DNA from: Patescibacteria group bacterium
Lineage (GTDB): Bacteria > Patescibacteriota > Patescibacteriia > Magasanikbacterales > GWA2-37-8
Assembly: GCA_028705565.1 (NCBI GenBank)
Contig: JAQWDH010000001.1
Location: 20,363 to 84,362, forward strand
Direction: 5' to 3'
DNA: 64,000 bases
A program made the translations under genes and the position numbers. Under the pieces are notes generated by a model. It had not been told where the DNA came from. It worked only from the letters and a program-made list of their open reading frames with translations, and did not search any database. Position 1 is the first letter of the stretch. Each line of letters begins with the position of its first letter. Positions 45,926 to 59,106 of this stretch are shown here, one piece after another.

Positions 45926-46488
45926 ATCTCTCTTGTCATAAAAATCTCTCTTTTTAGGAGAGCCAAGTCCAAAATAAAATCGCGAAAGCAAGTTTGGACC
46001 TCTGGGTAAAGTCCTTAACGGACGCTTTAATATCAAATAAAAAATGTTACAGATATTAAATATTTACTTAGAGTGTTCAAGCGGCTGACGCCATACTTTT
46101 GGCGAATAGTTTTGAAGGCCGCTGTCAAGCGGTTCTTTATTTTTTAAAAATGATTTTGAACGGAGCAAAAAATTTTCGCGAATGAAAATTTTTTGCCTCG
46201 TTCAAAACGATTGAAAAGAATTGAGCGGGTGTAAGAACTTTGACAATCAATTAGTAAGTTTCAACAAAAAGGGTAGAACTCCCGCGCTGATTTTATTCGC
46301 GCGGGAAAAATAAGAAAGCACAATTTAGTGTTTTCGTAGTATGCAATTTTAACAAGAGCGCATGGCGGATGCCTTGACACCAAAAGACGATGAAGGACGC
46401 TGCAGGGTGCGATAAGCCTCGGAGAGGTCCCAAGCAACCTTTGACCCGGGGATTTCCAAATGGGGAAACCCGCCGGTGCGTAGCACCG

Positions 46489-46600
46489 GAATTTACCAAT
46501 TTACAATTTTCAATTTACAATCAACTCCAATTATCAATAATTTATTGAAAATTGCCGCATTGTAAATTTATTGAAAATAATTGAAAATTCCAGTGTTATG
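46489..46600 (+). other. 23S intervening sequence 1 (AT-rich CAATTT-repeat hairpin in the E. coli helix ~130-150 region)
   Basis: Insertion relative to conserved flanks GGGGAAACCC ... CTGAATACATAGG. Confidence 0.55.
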
Positions 46601-47154
46601 CATCGGCACTGTACACTGAATACATAGGTGTATGGAGAAGACCTGGCGAAGTGAAACATCTCAGTAGCCAGAGGAAAATAAATCTATAGAGATTCCCTTA
46701 GTAGTGGCGAGCGAAAAGGGAAAAGCTTAAACCATATAAGTGTTTCTTTGAGAATGATTGGTCTTAGGATTAGTCTAGTATTAAAGATTAAAGGGATAGG
46801 TCGTTGCTTATATGGGGTTGTAAGATATTGGCGCTGACTGCCTACTCAGTCAGATGATTGAATAACCTTCCTAGTAGAATGCTCTGGAAAGAGCAACCAT
46901 AGAGGGTGATAGTCCCGTACGCGAAAGGAGTTACAAAATCATAGCCGTTATTCTTGAGTAGGACGGAACTCGTGAAATTCCGTCCGAAGCCGGGCCGACT
47001 ATGGTCCAAAGCTAAATACTTTTGGTGATCGATAGTGGACAAGTACCACGAGGGAAAGGTGAAAAGCAGCCCGGAGAGGGCGATGAAATAGTATCTGAAA
47101 CCGTGCGTTTACAAAGAGCGGAAGGTCAACCACATCTCGCTTTGTTTGATGTGG

Positions 47155-47215
47155 AATTTCCAATTTCCAATTTATTTAGTTATTGATTTTTGGAGTTTGG
47201 TAATTCTTACACGTC
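47155..47215 (+). other. 23S intervening sequence 2 (GGAATTTCCAATTTCCAATTT... at the helix-25 region)
   Basis: Insertion at a classical IVS site; same motif family. Confidence 0.5.
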
Positions 47216-47757
47216 AAATGAAGTGAGATGTGGCGACCGACCGTGTTCCTATTGAAGAATGAGCCTGCGAGTGTATGTGTGCCGCTTTGCTTAAGGGCCT
47301 ATGGTCCGGAGGCGTAGCGAAAGCGAGTCTTAACGGGCGTATACCTTGTATCTTTATGGTGCGAGGTTTGTGGCACGTATATAACCCGAAACCGGGTGAG
47401 CTATCCATGACCAGGATGAACCCCGCCGAAAGGCGGGGGGAGGTCCGAACCCACGCGCCGTGCAACACGCGGGGATGAGTTGTGGATGGGAGAGAAATTC
47501 TAATCGAACTCGGTGATAGCTGGTTCTCCTCGAAATAGCTGTAGGGCTAGCCTCAAATGTTTCTATCGGTGGTAGAGCACTGGATGAAAATCGGGTCCTT
47601 CGGGATACCATTTTCAATCAAACTCCGAATACCGGTAGCCAAAATTTGGGAGTCAGACAGTGACGGCTAAGCGCCATTGTCAAAAGGGAAACAGCCCAGA
47701 TCGCAAGCTAAGGCCCCTAAATCCATGTTAAGTGTAACAAAGGTGGTTCTAGTTCTC

Positions 47758-47794
<37 letters not shown>

Positions 47795-47924
47795 TAAAGA
47801 AAGCGTAACAGCTCACTGGTCAAGAGTTTTAGCGCCGAAAATGTACGGGACTCAAACATGGTGCCGAAGCTGCGGACTATCCGTGCTTCACTAATGTTCA
47901 GCACAAATTTTCAAGTATCCTGCC

Positions 47925-48045
47925 TACCGGCAGGTAATTATCAATTTTCAATCAATTATCCAATTATCAATTTTTAAATTTCATTTTGGGTCATTAAAAT
48001 TTATTGAAAATTGTAAATTGTAAATTTTGTGGCGAGCGTTAGCGA
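47925..48045 (+). other. 23S intervening sequence 3 (helix-45 region, ~E. coli 1170)
   Basis: AT-rich CAATTATC/CAATTTT repeat hairpin between conserved blocks. Confidence 0.5.
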
Positions 48046-48552
48046 GGCACGGGTATTGGTAGAGGAGCGTTCCTAACTGCGCAGAAGTCCTAGGCGTGAG
48101 CCGGGATGGAGTGTTAGGAAGCGAGAATGCAGGCATAAGTAGCAAAAAGGCAGGTGAGAATCCTGCCCGCCGAAAACCCAAGGTTTCCTGGGCAACGAGA
48201 ATCGACCCAGGGTTAGCCGATCCTAAGGCCAGCCCGTCGCAAGGCGGGGTAACCGATGGAAGAGCTGGTTAATATTCCAGCGCTATATGCAGTTTGGTTT
48301 TTACTGCGCATCTTTAATTTTTAAGCGTGTTTTGGTTATACGCGCGCCGCAAGGCGGAGACAAAGCCCTCGGGTGGAGTCAACTTAAAATAACAAGGTGC
48401 CTAGAAAAGGTAAAAATCGTTAAGCTGCATGTAATCGTACCGTAAACCGACACAGGTGGGTAAGTCGAGTAGACTAAGGCGTATGAGAGAACCCTCGTTA
48501 AGGAACTCTGCAATACAGCGGCCGTAACTTCGGGATAAGGCCTGTCCGACCG

Positions 48553-48692
48553 TGCCTCACTGCGTTTGACGCGGAATGACCAATATAATTTTCAATTACC
48601 AATTTTCAATTTAAGAGTCCGACCGAGTCGGACACAATAGTTGATCATTGGAAATTGGAATTTGGAAATTCCGCCCGAGCATAGCGAGGTGC
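48553..48692 (+). other. 23S intervening sequence 4, a ~140-bp element (copy A)
   Basis: CCTCACTGCGTTTGACGCGGAATGACCAAT...GTCCGACCGAGTCGGAC...GGAAATTCCGCCCGAGCATAGCGAGGTGCGG. Confidence 0.6.
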
Positions 48693-48817
48693 GGTTGGAT
48701 TACAACAAAAGACCTCAAGCGACTGTTTACCAAAAACACAGCTCCCTGCAAAAGCGTAAGCTGAAGTATAGGGGGTGATGCCTGGCCAGTGTCAGAACGT
48801 TAAAGAGAGAGGTGAGC

Positions 48818-48957
48818 CGTACCTCACTGCGTTTGGTACGGAATGACCAATTTTCAATTACCAATTTTCAATTTAAGAGTCCGGTCGAGCCGGACACAAT
48901 AATTGATCATTGGAAATTGGAATTTGGAAATTCCGCCCGAGCATAGCGAGGTGCGGC
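48818..48957 (+). other. 23S intervening sequence 5, a near-identical second copy (copy B) of the 140-bp element in a different helix
   Basis: About 95% identical to copy A; separated by genuine 23S sequence (GACTGTTTACCAAAAACACAG). Confidence 0.6.
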
Positions 48958-49569
48958 GTAGCCTTGAACTGAAGCGCTGATGAACGCCGGCGGTAACTAT
49001 AACCGTCCTAAGGTAGCGCAATTCCTTGTCGGGTGAGTTCCGACGCGCATGAATGGTATAACGATTTGAGGACTGTCTCAACGAGGGACTCAGTGAAATT
49101 GCAAGGAAGGTGAAGATGCCTTCTACCCGCAACTAGACGAAAAGACCCCGTGAAGCTTTACTACAACTTGGCATTGGTATAAGGTTAAATATGTTCAGAG
49201 TAGGTGGAATCCCGACTTAGTCGGGAGACAATGAGACACCACCCTTACTTAATTTTATGCCTAATCTTCCGACTTGAATCAGCCGGAGGAGACAGTGTCT
49301 GGTGGGTAGTTTAACTGGGGCGGTTGCCTCCTAAAATGTAACGGAGGCGTTTACAAAGGTCAGCTTAGCTCGGATGGAAATCGAGCTGGACGTGCAAACG
49401 CAAAAGCTGGCTTTACTGCAAGGGCTACAACCCGAGCAGTCGCGAAAGCGGAAGTTAGTGAACCGACCATCCTATATAGGAAGGTGGAAGATCAACGGAT
49501 AAAAGCTACTCCGGGGATAACAGGCTGATCTAGCCCGATAGTCCACATAGACGGCTAGGTTTGGCACCT

Positions 49570-50420
49570 TAATACATCGGGGTGCTGCAGTAGTGATACT
49601 GCACCAAAAATTCGGCTTATAACGGTGAACCCGTCATTAAATGTATGGTATAATTAAAATAATAATCCATTTAATCGGCAACACCGTGGGAAGTCTTAAT
49701 CAAACACAAAAATCAATACTTATCGGAAGTCTCTTGGGAGATGGAAATTTGAGATTGGCAGAAGGAAAAACAAATGCTTTGTTTGAAGTAAATCATTCAA
49801 TCAAACAAAAATTGTATGTTGATTGGAAATATAATCAATTACGCCCATTCATTTTAACGGCTCCGAAAGCGAGAAGTTGTAATGGAAAACGAATTGCTTA
49901 TCGGTTTACGACACGCAGTTTGCCTGTATTTACTTCGCTCTACAGGGAATTCTACAGGGATAGTATAAAAGTAATTCCTTGTAATCTCACATTGACACCA
50001 TTAGCGCTCGCGGTATGGTTTATGGACGATGGCAGTAAAAGCCGTTCATCTATTTATCTAAACACGCAGCAATTCAACATTGAAGAACAAATTCGTTTGC
50101 TTCAATTATTGAAAAAGCAATTTAACTTGTCAGGCGCGCTAAATAAGGACAAGAAGTATTTTCGTATAAGAATAACATCGTCAAGCACAGCGCTATTTAA
50201 AGAAATAGTGCGGCCGTATGTTATAAAAATTTTTAATTATAAACTTGATTAATGACCCCGTAACGACTGACCCGAAAGGGGAGGTTCCGACCTTTTATGT
50301 CGGAACAACACGCCGACGCTTGTTTTACAAAAACCGAGATTATGCCGTTTAAGTCGGCTACGATCCGGAACAAGCAGAAGATATAGTCTACCCCATGAGA
50401 AATCATGGAATAATCGACAG
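49570..50420 (+). mobile_element. Group-I-type intron in the 23S rRNA (inserted after GGCACCT, near E. coli position ~2449) encoding a LAGLIDADG homing endonuclease
   Basis: Exon sequence GGCACCT | ... | CGATGTCGGCTCATC is interrupted by 851 bp containing the ORF; intron ends in G. Confidence 0.75.
49641..50252 (+). CDS. LAGLIDADG-family homing endonuclease (intron-encoded)
   Basis: Two LAGLIDADG-like motifs ([11 protein letters not shown] and [10 protein letters not shown]). Confidence 0.75.
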
Positions 50421-50467
<47 letters not shown>

Positions 50468-50480
50468 TGGCTGTTCGCCA

Positions 50481-50532
<52 letters not shown>

Positions 50533-50906
50533 CTATCTGTTGCGGGCGTTGAACATTGAGAAGACTCACTCCTAGTACGAGAGGACCGGAGCGGACGAAC
50601 CTCTAGTGTACCAGTTGTCCTACCAAGGGCATTGCTGGGTAGCTACGTTCGGCACGGATAAACGCTGAAAGCATCTAAGCGTGAAGCCGTCTTCAAGATT
50701 AATGTTCGTCATAGACTCCTTGTAGACTACAAGGTTGATAGGCGCTATGTGTAAGTTTAGTAATAAACTGAGCAGAGGCGTACTAATAAGTCAAGCATAC
50801 TACGAAAGCGCTAAGCGGTGCTTTTTGCACCCTTTTAAGTCCGCCCTGTCTGCCGACAGGCAGGCTTTGGCGGAAAGCCATTATAAAACAAAATTGAGTA
50901 TGAAGT

Positions 50907-50961
<55 letters not shown>

Positions 50962-51022
50962 CCCGCCAGAGGCGGGTCCGCCTTTGGCGGAAAGCCATTA
51001 TAAAACAAAATTGAGTATGAAG

Positions 51023-51132
<110 letters not shown>

Positions 51133-56727: not shown

Positions 56728-56791
56728 TTTAGTTTTTGGTTGGCGCGTTACTTTTTAATCTTGGCTTCAAAATAAATGTTTACGCAGCTTA

Positions 56792-57112
56792 TCAGGTGTC
56801 ATGTAATGTATTTTTTGAAATCTTATATTTTACTTTTAGATTTTTTATTCGTTCAATAATTTTATTATAGTGTTCTTTTAGCAAAAGCCCTTGCTTAAAA
56901 GTTGATTCAGCCGTCATTTCCAGTTTTTGCATTAATTTTTCATCAATTGCCACATCTTTTTCTTTTCTGGTTGCAAAAAGCAGAGCCCCAGGAAATGTTT
57001 CAGCAAAAACCGGATCGTTGGTGTTTTCTAACGCTGAAATTATTTCAAATAATCCGTCCACGGAATAAAATTGAGGCGGAATGTATTCGTTTTTGTTTTC
57101 TGAATTTTTCAT
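56792..57112 (-). CDS. Hypothetical protein
   Basis: ORF only. Confidence 0.3.
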   Translation of the reverse strand: MKNSENKNEYIPPQFYSVDGLFEIISALENTNDPVFAETFPGALLFATRKEKDVAIDEKLMQKLEMTAESTFKQGLLLKEHYNKIIERIKNLKVKYKISKNTLHDT

Positions 57113-57299
57113 ATTTAGTGAAATAGGGCTGTTTTTTGAGTTGCTCGAGTAAAATTTTTCTATACTTCATATTTATGACGATGCCGTATCATAAATGAAA
57201 TATGGTATCAATAGACTTAACAAGTCATACTAATTTTAGTGAAAATAAGTTCTCCATAATTGAAAAGTAAATTTTGAAAAATAAAGAATATTTTTTGTT

Positions 57300-57545
57300 A
57301 TTTCAGCCAACGTTCGCCATATTCGATGTTTTTGCGACCAACGGGAGCAAAAACATGGGAGAGGAAAATGGCGATTCCATTGAAAAAATTATTTATCGCC
57401 ATTTTCTGAACCGCATATATTGTGTTAGGCGTTGTAAAATTTTTACACTTTTTGTTTTTTTTTCGCTTACAGTTCAATCACGGGGGGCAAGGGGGGCCGA
57501 ATCCGTTCACTCAATATGGCGAAGGGGCAGAGACCTGCCCGCATA
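57300..57545. repeat. ~215-bp element copy A with terminal inverted repeats (TTCGCCATATTCGA ... TCAATATGGCGAAGG), 3' of fic
   Basis: About 90% identical to 58855-59080; internal 12-bp perfect hairpin GAAAATGGCGAT/ATCGCCATTTTC. Confidence 0.7.
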
Positions 57546-57618
57546 CCTACGGTATGTAAACCGGTAGGCAGGCAGGGGTAAGTGGGGTATGCTCTATAGC
57601 CATATCAATTATAATATT

Positions 57619-58530
57619 TTAGATGTGCTTTTCTGGTTTGTTTTTATCACTTTTTTGCGTGACACCAATTTTCCACACGCCTTTTTCCAGAAAGGCTTCT
57701 ATTGTCTGGCGCGTAGCTTTATTGATCAAATTAGAGTGTGAAATTTTATTCATTTTTCCATATTCAGCGAGTGTCATAATCTGCGCGCCCTCTAAATACG
57801 CCAGCCGTTTGTGGTAACTATTGGTAAGCGCCTTGCCGACTATTTCTTCCATAATATCCGTCGCGCCTTTGGCATCAAATTCTCTAAACGCTTCATAATA
57901 TTTATTTCTGTCAATAAATTTGATGTTTATCGGCACGAATCCTTCACGTATCAATAAATAATTATTTATTACACGTCCAATTCGGCCGTTACCGTCGCAA
58001 AATGGGTGGGTATATTCAAAAGCCAGATGCAATTTTGCAATCCTCTTGATTATATTTTCATGGCTCGTGGCATTGTATTCGGAAAGCATTTTTTCCAGCC
58101 GACCGACTACTTCTTTGGGGTTAGGAGCGATATGGCTGCCAACGCGCACAAATTCATTATCTTTTCTAAATCTTCCGGCAATATCATCACGGATATTTAA
58201 AATCAACATTTTATGAAGTGACAAAATTATTTCCAGGGTAAGCTCCTGTTCTTTGGCTCTTTGGTCAATATATGTTACTACTCGCGCTAAATTTTTTGCC
58301 TCAAACATTTCTCGTTCAGAGATGTATCGATCCAAATCTATCTGTAAAAGTATTTTTTCGGTTTCTTCCAATGTGAGTGTGCTGTTTTCGATAGCATTAG
58401 AGTTGTATACTTGCTCGGCTACTTCGGCTTCGCTGATTAACTTTAAAAGCGCCTGTTTACCAACAGCCACGGTATAGAAGCGTTCTCTTAATTTGGAGAT
58501 TGTGTTAAAAATATGTAGTATTTTAGGCAT
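57619..58530 (-). CDS. fic: Fic-family protein (putative AMPylator) with an intramolecular inhibitory motif
   Basis: Canonical HPFCDGNGRIGR Fic motif; upstream SNAIEN matches the (S/T)xxxE(G/N) inhibitory helix. Confidence 0.85.
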   Translation of the reverse strand: MPKILHIFNTISKLRERFYTVAVGKQALLKLISEAEVAEQVYNSNAIENSTLTLEETEKILLQIDLDRYISEREMFEAKNLARVVTYIDQRAKEQELTLEIILSLHKMLILNIRDDIAGRFRKDNEFVRVGSHIAPNPKEVVGRLEKMLSEYNATSHENIIKRIAKLHLAFEYTHPFCDGNGRIGRVINNYLLIREGFVPINIKFIDRNKYYEAFREFDAKGATDIMEEIVGKALTNSYHKRLAYLEGAQIMTLAEYGKMNKISHSNLINKATRQTIEAFLEKGVWKIGVTQKSDKNKPEKHI

Positions 58531-58854
58531 ATCTATTGTTAATAGTGAATAGTAATTCTACTATACACTATTTTCACTCTTTTGTCAAGATAACCGTGAA
58601 AAACTGTAAGAAATAAGTAATTTTTACGGTTATGGTGTGCTGTATGGCTCTATATCACTCAACCGATATAGTAATGTCAAGTGGTTAAGGCAACAGGTGT
58701 GCATTAGATAGATTTAATTTAGGATAACTCGTCTCGTCCGAGAATACGATGGGGTATTATACTTCCTCCCAATTTACTCAATCACATTCGCCCCCCCCTT
58801 CGTCAATCACCAATCACAAAAAAATAAAAAGTATAAAAATTTTATTTTGCATAA

Positions 58855-59080
58855 CGTTCCAGCGTATGCGATGTTTTTGCGACCAACGGGAGCAAAAATA
58901 TGGGAGAAGAAAATGGCGATGCCATTGAAAATAATATTTATCGCTATTTTCTGAACCGCATATACCGTGTTAGGCGTTGTAAAATTTTTACACTTTTTGT
59001 TTTTTTCGTTCGTCGTTCAATTGTGGGGGGGGGCGAATCCGTTCACTCAATATGGCGAAGGGGCAGAGGGGGTAGGGGTG
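58855..59080. repeat. ~215-bp element copy B, between fic and the AAA-ATPase gene
   Basis: Direct repeat of copy A. Confidence 0.7.
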
Positions 59081-59106
59081 AATGCCACGTAGCCATATCG
59101 CTCACA

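Follow-up and report, generated by a model that had tools for sequence, protein, structure and literature searches.

Among the described systems closest to the element considered here are two mitochondrial ones, the yeast omega intron with its endonuclease I-SceI and the intron that encodes I-WcaI. Both are group I introns at site 2449 in domain V of the large-subunit (LSU) ribosomal RNA (rRNA) and encode a monomeric LAGLIDADG_2 enzyme with two motifs. The present element lies in a stretch of 64,000 nucleotides (nt) from a Patescibacteria group bacterium (assembly GCA_028705565.1, contig JAQWDH010000001.1, positions 20,363 to 84,362; the whole of this stretch is called the window), where an 851-nt insert interrupts the 23S rRNA gene. 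It is read here, with a probability of about 0.9, as a mobile group I intron of IA type at 23S U2500/C2501, which encodes an I-SceI/I-WcaI-type LAGLIDADG_2 enzyme in P6. I-SceI and I-WcaI are the best matches to its protein in both sequence and fold, at 27-32% protein identity, and their introns share with it the position in domain V and the double-motif monomer, but they have mitochondrial hosts and lie at site 2449, whereas the window intron is found in a bacterium at site 2500. The omega intron further belongs to subgroup IB and carries its open reading frame (ORF) in P8, in contrast to the IA architecture and P6 ORF of the window intron. A layout of the latter kind is found in the Chlamydomonas reinhardtii chloroplast LSU intron with I-CreI, which is at site 2593, belongs to subgroup IA3 and has its ORF in the P6 loop. 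Compared by description, this intron and that of the window would work alike and share an IA-type core with P7.1 and P7.2, a P6 ORF and insertion into domain V of a 23S rRNA of the bacterial type; the sites differ, and I-CreI is a single-motif LAGLIDADG_1 homodimer whereas the window enzyme has two motifs.

Introns in bacterial 23S genes have been reported from Coxiella (L1917 and L1951), Thermotoga (L1917 and L1931), Simkania (L1931) and Synechococcus (L1917, L1931 and L2593) (PMC1995217; PMC11270868). Like the window intron these group I introns carry LAGLIDADG genes and are related to those of organelles, but their sites differ and their endonucleases are single-motif. A survey of rRNA insertions in the candidate phyla radiation (CPR) by Tsurumaki et al. 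(2024) found that 82% of 23S genes carry insertions and that 45% of the insertions match the Rfam group I model, with intron sites 23IS6-14 clustering around the peptidyl-transferase centre in domain V and 62 LAGLIDADG_2 ORFs of about 210 amino acids (aa) within 23S insertions (PMC11270868). Of these sites, 23IS9-11, 13 and 14 were new to bacteria, and 23IS9-11 lie between 1952 and 2593 (PMC11270868). The introns of that survey have the same host group, the same gene and the same LAGLIDADG_2 type of ORF as the window intron, which is most likely of the 23IS9-11 class. Insertions were classed there by Rfam model and Pfam, with no secondary structure for the window site, and LAGLIDADG_2 proteins were called 'single-domain', whereas the window protein has two motifs and the fold of the I-SceI monomer. 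The enzyme tested in the survey, I-ShaI, is a LAGLIDADG_1 homodimer from another site, in contrast to the LAGLIDADG_2 enzyme of the window.

The position of the insert in its host gene is as follows, L084 being a 21.6-kb contig from Joint Genome Institute (JGI) metagenome 3300029288 that covers the same locus.

46342-50806, + strand: host 23S rRNA gene (Rfam RF02541, bacterial LSU model, 2209 bits)
49570-50420, + strand: predicted group I intron, 851 nt between E. coli U2500 and C2501, exactly absent from contig L084
50420, + strand: 3'-terminal G of the intron (omega G)

The insert begins with U and ends with G. GGCACCT runs up to 49569 and CGATGTCGGCTCATC begins at 50421, and the conserved rRNA sequence is restored by this placement of the borders only. 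In the annotated E. coli 23S gene GGCACCTCGATGTCGGCTC is uninterrupted at 2494-2512, which puts the break between U2500 and C2501, and global alignment to the E. coli 23S likewise gave one 851-nt insertion at U2500/C2501. A first-pass annotation of the window had described an 851-bp insert, ending in G, that splits exon sequence contiguous in E. coli, and the same coordinates, length and terminal G50420 were found. The site around E. coli 2449 that it gave was wrong, since E. coli numbering puts the break at L2500 and the stretch that holds position 2449, GGGATAACAGG, is unbroken at about window 49505-49520. Its description of the site as a known LSU hot-spot holds for the cluster in domain V and the peptidyl-transferase region (PMC11270868), not for site 2500 itself, of which no published description was found. 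Searches of the literature turned up no intron at 2500.

The intron-less contig matches the window on both sides of the insert, L084 805-2319 corresponding to window 48055-49569 at 99.6% identity and L084 2320-2739 to window 50421-50840 at 100%. It is without exactly the 851 nt, the junction reading GGTTTGGCACCT|CGATGTCGGCTC. Both junctions are also present in a 946-nt contig from another sequencing run, which matches window 49501-50446 at 100% identity and includes 69 nt of 5' exon. The borders are thus fixed by the intron-less allele and by this independent contig. That the insert is a quirk of assembly was considered and rejected, as both junctions are reproduced in the 946-nt contig and the near-identical strain is uninterrupted. 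The two alleles show a recent gain or a precise loss between near-identical strains.

Relatives were sought in GTDB genomes, each bacterial species being represented by one genome. The protein was found to have at least 494 relatives in these species-representative genomes, spread over many phyla, and borders were then sought in the 80 best loci. Among these, 71 inserts were delimited, with lengths of 770-910 nt apart from one outlier, and all 71 are bounded by GGCACCU|CGAUGUCGG, i.e. lie at the same site. The site is occupied in CPR, Omnitrophota, Elusimicrobia, Acidobacteriota, Actinomycetota, Chloroflexi and Gammaproteobacteria. An allele differing by presence and absence, coupled with occupancy of one site in many phyla, is what a homing intron would be expected to look like.

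The coding part of the insert consists of these features.

49686-50252, + strand: ORF of the LAGLIDADG_2 family, 188 aa from GTG 49686 or 203 aa (49641-50252) from ATG 49641; stop TAA at 50250-52
49719-49751, + strand: LAGLIDADG motif 1, aa 27-37 (203-aa numbering), its Asp aligned with I-SceI D44
50007-50039, + strand: LAGLIDADG motif 2, aa 123-133 (203-aa numbering), its Asp aligned with I-SceI D145

The 203-aa ORF with two LAGLIDADG-like motifs, and its reading as an intron-encoded homing endonuclease in the 23S peptidyl-transferase region, had both been put forward in the first-pass annotation and agree with what was found. The protein matches Pfam LAGLIDADG_2 (PF03161) with 154.7 bits against a gathering score of 25 (E 2.9e-45), over profile positions 2-168 of 168. 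The match to I-SceI spans residues 19-202 at E about 1e-15, and in it the two motifs have their acidic residues aligned: GD(34)G and MDD(129-130)G (203-aa numbering) align with LGDAY and MDDGG of I-SceI and are invariant in 33 homologues, across which 42 residues in all are invariant. An AlphaFold2 model of the 188-aa version has a mean predicted local confidence (pLDDT) of 93.5 and a predicted template-modelling score (pTM) of 0.90, and Foldseek comparison retrieved the DNA-bound structures of I-WcaI (6x1j) and I-SceI (5a0m) with a template-modelling (TM) score of 0.88 and E values of 4e-15 and 4e-14. As modelled, the product is an I-SceI-type endonuclease, a monomer with a pseudo-dimeric fold. 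The start of translation is probably at GTG 49686. The alignment with homologues starts only at about residue 13, and the GTG is preferred because it is conserved in relatives (63 of 69, 11 of these without any other upstream start codon) and because another, independent assembly has the identical 188-aa product as its gene call. Two ORFs of 57 and 106 aa on the minus strand inside the intron were treated as chance ORFs.

The RNA structure was built by comparative analysis because the insert scores too low against the Rfam group I model to reach its gathering score. The elements drawn on the window sequence are listed below, with percentages that refer to paired cells in the alignment of relatives.

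49563-49569, + strand: 5' exon end and 5' strand of P1; GGCACCU pairs with 49580-49586, and U49569 is the splice-site U
49574-49586, + strand: internal guide sequence, ACAUCG (P10 strand, 49574-79) then GGGUGCU (P1 strand, 49580-86)
49564-69 / 49580-85: P1, with U49569.G49580 at the 5' splice site; U.G in 37/37 relatives
49574-79 / 50421-26: P10, six Watson-Crick pairs, adjoining P1 in the guide; G.C(+1) in 37/37 relatives
50421-50426, + strand: 3' exon start and P10 strand, CGAUGU
49587-49602, + strand: P2 hairpin (49587-92 / 49597-602), 6 bp with a GUGA loop, found in the minimum-energy fold; 6/6 pairs compensatory
49612-49616, + strand: P3 5' strand UCGGC, paired with 50312-16; 99.5% of cells paired, 3/5 pairs compensatory
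50312-50316, + strand: P3 3' strand GCCGA, paired with 49612-16
49622-27 / 49682-87, + strand: P4, enclosing P5 and P5a; 99.5% paired
49630-33 / 49676-78, + strand: P5, inside P4; 67% paired in the shared register
49637-43 / 49668-74, + strand: P5a, inside P4, from the fold
49688-49703, + strand: P6 5' strand, GGG AA GUC UUAAUCAA, coinciding with the first ORF codons; paired with 50245-50259, 99.5% paired
50245-50259, + strand: P6 3' strand, UUGAUUAA U GAC CCC, overlapping the last codons and the stop
50260-50268, + strand: J6/7 (GUA) and P7 5' strand, with A50263, bulged C50264, G50265 (G-binding pair) and ACU
A50263-U50389, G50265-C50388, 50266-68 / 50385-87: P7 pairs
50271-73 / 50278-80, + strand: P7.1, with a GAAA loop
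50284-91 / 50299-306, + strand: P7.2
50318-50375, + strand: extended P8, base 50318-24 / 50369-75; 96.6% paired, 3/4 pairs compensatory
50334-40 / 50363-68 and 50344-47 / 50355-58, + strand: P8 inner helices
50376-50389, + strand: J8/7 (AGAAGAUAU) and P7 3' strand (AGUCU), the conserved AAGAUAUAGUC element
50393-50408, + strand: P9 hairpin (50393-98 / 50403-08), 6 bp with a GAAA loop; 5/6 pairs compensatory

All of these pairs are canonical or G.U on the window sequence, the P3/P7 pseudoknot included. With the ORF deleted, the intron and its short exon flanks (336 nt in all) have a folding energy of -109 kcal/mol (z = -6.0), and the minimum-energy fold recovers every helix outside the pseudoknot, namely P1, P2, P4, P5, P6, P7.1, P7.2, P8 and P9. 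The loop of P6 holds the ORF, whose first codons (GUG GGA AGU CUU AAU CAA) and last ones, together with the stop, supply the two strands of P4'/P6. The ends of the ORF thus double as structural strands, and translation and folding of the region would therefore compete, as is found in many ORF-bearing group I introns. An earlier placement of the J6/7-P7 element at GUUUAAGUCGGCUAC (50348-50362) was abandoned, as it left no room for P8, and the family alignment puts the element at CCCCGUAACGACU (50256-50268). The rejected sequence mimics the group I 'R' consensus inside the P8 extension and is common only to the homologous intron at locus L003 and its relatives. In the tail of the intron, CGACA (50415-19) can pair with UGUCG (50424-28) of the exon, which puts the 3' splice site in a GCGA loop; this pairing (within window 50409-50428) overlaps P10, and the two cannot coexist.

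Covariation was examined in 37 ORF-deleted relatives with a plain MAFFT alignment, 53 pairs and 500 shuffles. In the alignment 94.0% of cells were paired, as against 37-43% when partners were slid by 1-3 columns, and compensatory changes occurred in 23 of the 53 pairs, P2, P3, P8 and P9 being rich in them. The observed values were reached by none of the 500 shuffles for four of five measures and by one for the fifth. P3, P4, P6, P7 and P8 were 97-100% paired, and strongly conserved blocks are common to the non-coding parts of the relatives. The closing pair of P7 covaries (AU in 28, GC in 8, UA in 1) while the neighbouring G50265-C50388 is invariant in 37/37, a pattern of a switching closing pair beside a fixed G-C that would be expected of the guanosine-binding site. 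P7.1, P7.2, P5a and inner P8 are out of register in the MAFFT alignment, and P7.1 and P7.2 were folded sequence by sequence instead; exactly two hairpins between P7 and P3' were found in 60 of the 65 relatives in which the segment could be delimited. In the scheme of Michel and Westhof from 1990, subgroup IA is reportedly defined by a pair of additional hairpins, P7.1 and P7.2, which separate the 5' strand of P7 from the 3' strand of P3.

The P1-P10 fold with its covariation, the endonuclease ORF and the exact intron-less allele bear out the mobile group I intron that the first-pass annotation had proposed, with a foldable group I core. The intron is intact and probably active, judging from these features. 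Exogenous guanosine would attack after U2500, the terminal G would next dock in P7, and the freed 5' exon would attack before C2501. The exons would then be rejoined in the peptidyl-transferase loop, and because splicing rejoins this loop a functional ribosome is to be expected. The enzyme would cut intron-less 23S rDNA at ...GGCACCU|CGAUGUCGG..., and repair from an intron-bearing copy would spread the element (homing). CPR genomes usually have one rRNA operon, so that spread would need exchange of DNA between cells.

Several points weigh against this reading. Splicing, endonuclease cleavage and homing are steps that we infer. The match to Rfam RF00028, the search that the first-pass annotation had proposed, is significant (E 1.6e-4) but reaches 26.4 bits, under the gathering score of 50, so that no intron is called at that threshold, and covers the J8/7-P7-P9 part only (the AAGAUAUAGUC element and the next hairpin). 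A clearly homologous intron, that of relative L006 (100-1000), gave no Rfam group I match at E <= 0.01. P5 is the weakest helix, with its 67% of cells paired in the shared register; the clade of the window pairs it in a slightly shifted one. The assignment to subgroup IA is indicated by architecture only, and the start codon is ambiguous, ATG 49641 being the alternative, with no obvious Shine-Dalgarno sequence seen for the ORF. The low Rfam score is a limit of the model, faced with an ORF of roughly 560 nt in P6 and with the IA extras, and not a missing feature.

The least improbable of the other explanations, though still unlikely, is that the intron still splices while its ORF is inactive or has become only a splicing helper (maturase), inheritance now being vertical. 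Homing endonuclease activity is what we infer from the protein, its start codon is uncertain, and two LAGLIDADG proteins that are weak structural matches to the ORF, the bI3 maturase and I-AniI, act in splicing. However, the ORF is intact, keeps both catalytic Asp residues and is modelled with confidence over its full length, the 42 residues are held invariant across 33 homologues, and the exact presence and absence between near-identical strains and the use of the same site across many phyla argue for mobility. An intron from another organism, joined to this 23S gene by chimeric metagenome assembly across conserved flanks, is improbable. The flanking rRNA is highly conserved, the locus also occurs without the intron and the independent contig that bears the intron is short, as at a bubble in an assembly graph; yet its 69 nt of 5' exon are identical to the window even in a stretch that differs from E. 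coli, and the window contig is 150 kb long and carries the identical exon sequence to either side. Were a chimera involved, the host would change but not the identity of the element.

A complete, covariation-backed group I core with a guide that aligns both exons also speaks against an intervening sequence that is excised without religation, in the manner of RNase III, or retained, to leave a fragmented or enlarged 23S rRNA. The same 23S gene does have several other expansions at classical positions of such sequences, and an unspliced group I intron in chlamydial 23S rRNA is attributed to Everett (1999) where that work is cited in PMC11270868. The insert, however, lies within the peptidyl-transferase loop rather than a peripheral helix (9, 25 or 45), and no long terminal stem joining its two ends was found, which leaves this explanation very improbable. 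That the insert is a group II intron, or a mobile element of some other kind, can practically be dismissed: it has no Rfam group II match and no reverse transcriptase, its ORF is a LAGLIDADG protein, and the group I pairings and the J8/7 element are present. The mobile IA-type group I intron is therefore preferred.

As such the window intron is a classic selfish element, and its lineage is one in which rRNA introns are already known to abound. Since Rfam screens miss this family, the numbers of group I introns published for CPR rRNA are probably too low. Intron-plus and intron-minus alleles with near-identical flanks provide the exact natural substrate for the predicted endonuclease (L084 about 2300-2340), and a compact 188-aa I-SceI-type enzyme with a universally conserved rDNA site as its predicted target could be of interest for meganuclease engineering.

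One bacterial precedent is known for the loss of the terminal G, Coxiella Cbu.L1917, to judge from the title under which PMC11270868 cites Raghavan (2007). The window copy has the normal terminal G, whereas 25 of the 71 delimited relatives resemble the Coxiella intron in being without it and end in A, always as ...UA|CGAUG (e.g. L001 2914-3764, L005 2920-3771 and L020 2907-3752). In the A-ending relatives P1, P10, the invariant G-C pair of P7 and the ORF are unchanged. The terminal A is clustered on the endonuclease tree, yet the terminal base changes repeatedly there, at least about 11 times, as against 20.7 changes on average and never fewer than 16 under shuffling, and a clade of Acidobacteriota, Actinomycetota, Chloroflexi and Omnitrophota is all G-ending. 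Two explanations for the terminal A were rejected. Compensation by an A-U G-binding pair does not apply, GACU/AGUC being invariant, and an error in the borders would not account for it, since a shift of 1-2 nt gives no terminal G without altering conserved rRNA 2499-2501. G-ending relatives in CPR-associated clades often have a ...GACAG tail, which looks like the 3' end of A-ending ones with an extension; L003 ends in ...GUA+AAUCCGACAG and the window intron in ...AUA+AUCGACAG. It may tentatively be suggested, though with considerable doubt, that these introns form a very large and structurally undescribed IA-type family at 23S 2500, present in at least 494 species-level genomes and more than 10 phyla, in which about a third of the copies end in A while keeping the G-binding site, the ORFs and P10. 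If this is true and A-ending copies splice accurately in what is an essential gene, they would offer a natural system for the choice of a 3' splice site without a terminal G. The A-ending relatives are the only part of the material that could bear on an open mechanistic question.

The host is an uncultured Patescibacteria (CPR) bacterium and not an organelle; the neighbouring genes are bacterial, with weak matches to curated families. One further rRNA gene lies downstream of the 23S gene.

51025-51131: 5S rRNA gene (Rfam RF00001, 78 bits)

No 16S rRNA gene was found in the window, i.e. in the 46 kb upstream or the 13 kb downstream of the 23S-5S pair, and the rRNA genes of this genome are accordingly taken to be unlinked. 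Six more expansions relative to E. coli, each of about 60-160 nt, are present in the 23S gene, at window 46481-46614, 46750-46871, 47143-47230, 47876-48052, 48542-48607 and 48804-48961 (E. coli positions of about 136-155, 292, 546, 1163-1181, 1704-1711 and 1854-1879). Several of the six are at classical intervening-sequence sites (helices 25 and 45), and none of the six matched any intron model. Within the 23S gene only the expansion at the helix-45 site (window 47887-48054 against L084 650-804) fails to align between the two strains; as the intron-less strain is otherwise 99-100% identical, this intervening sequence appears to be strain-variable too. The strains also diverge downstream of their shared genes, window about 56775-59100 having patchy matches of 83-87% to L084 8833-16619, and in the divergent stretch L084 has genes for a DNA methyltransferase and an AAA-ATPase, resembling a restriction-modification system. 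A perfect 117-nt tandem repeat of 1.8 copies (window 50865-51078) spans the spacer between 23S and 5S and reaches ~54 nt into the 5S gene, which accounts for a partial 5S match at 50932-50961, and BLAST offsets indicate that L084 has one copy more.

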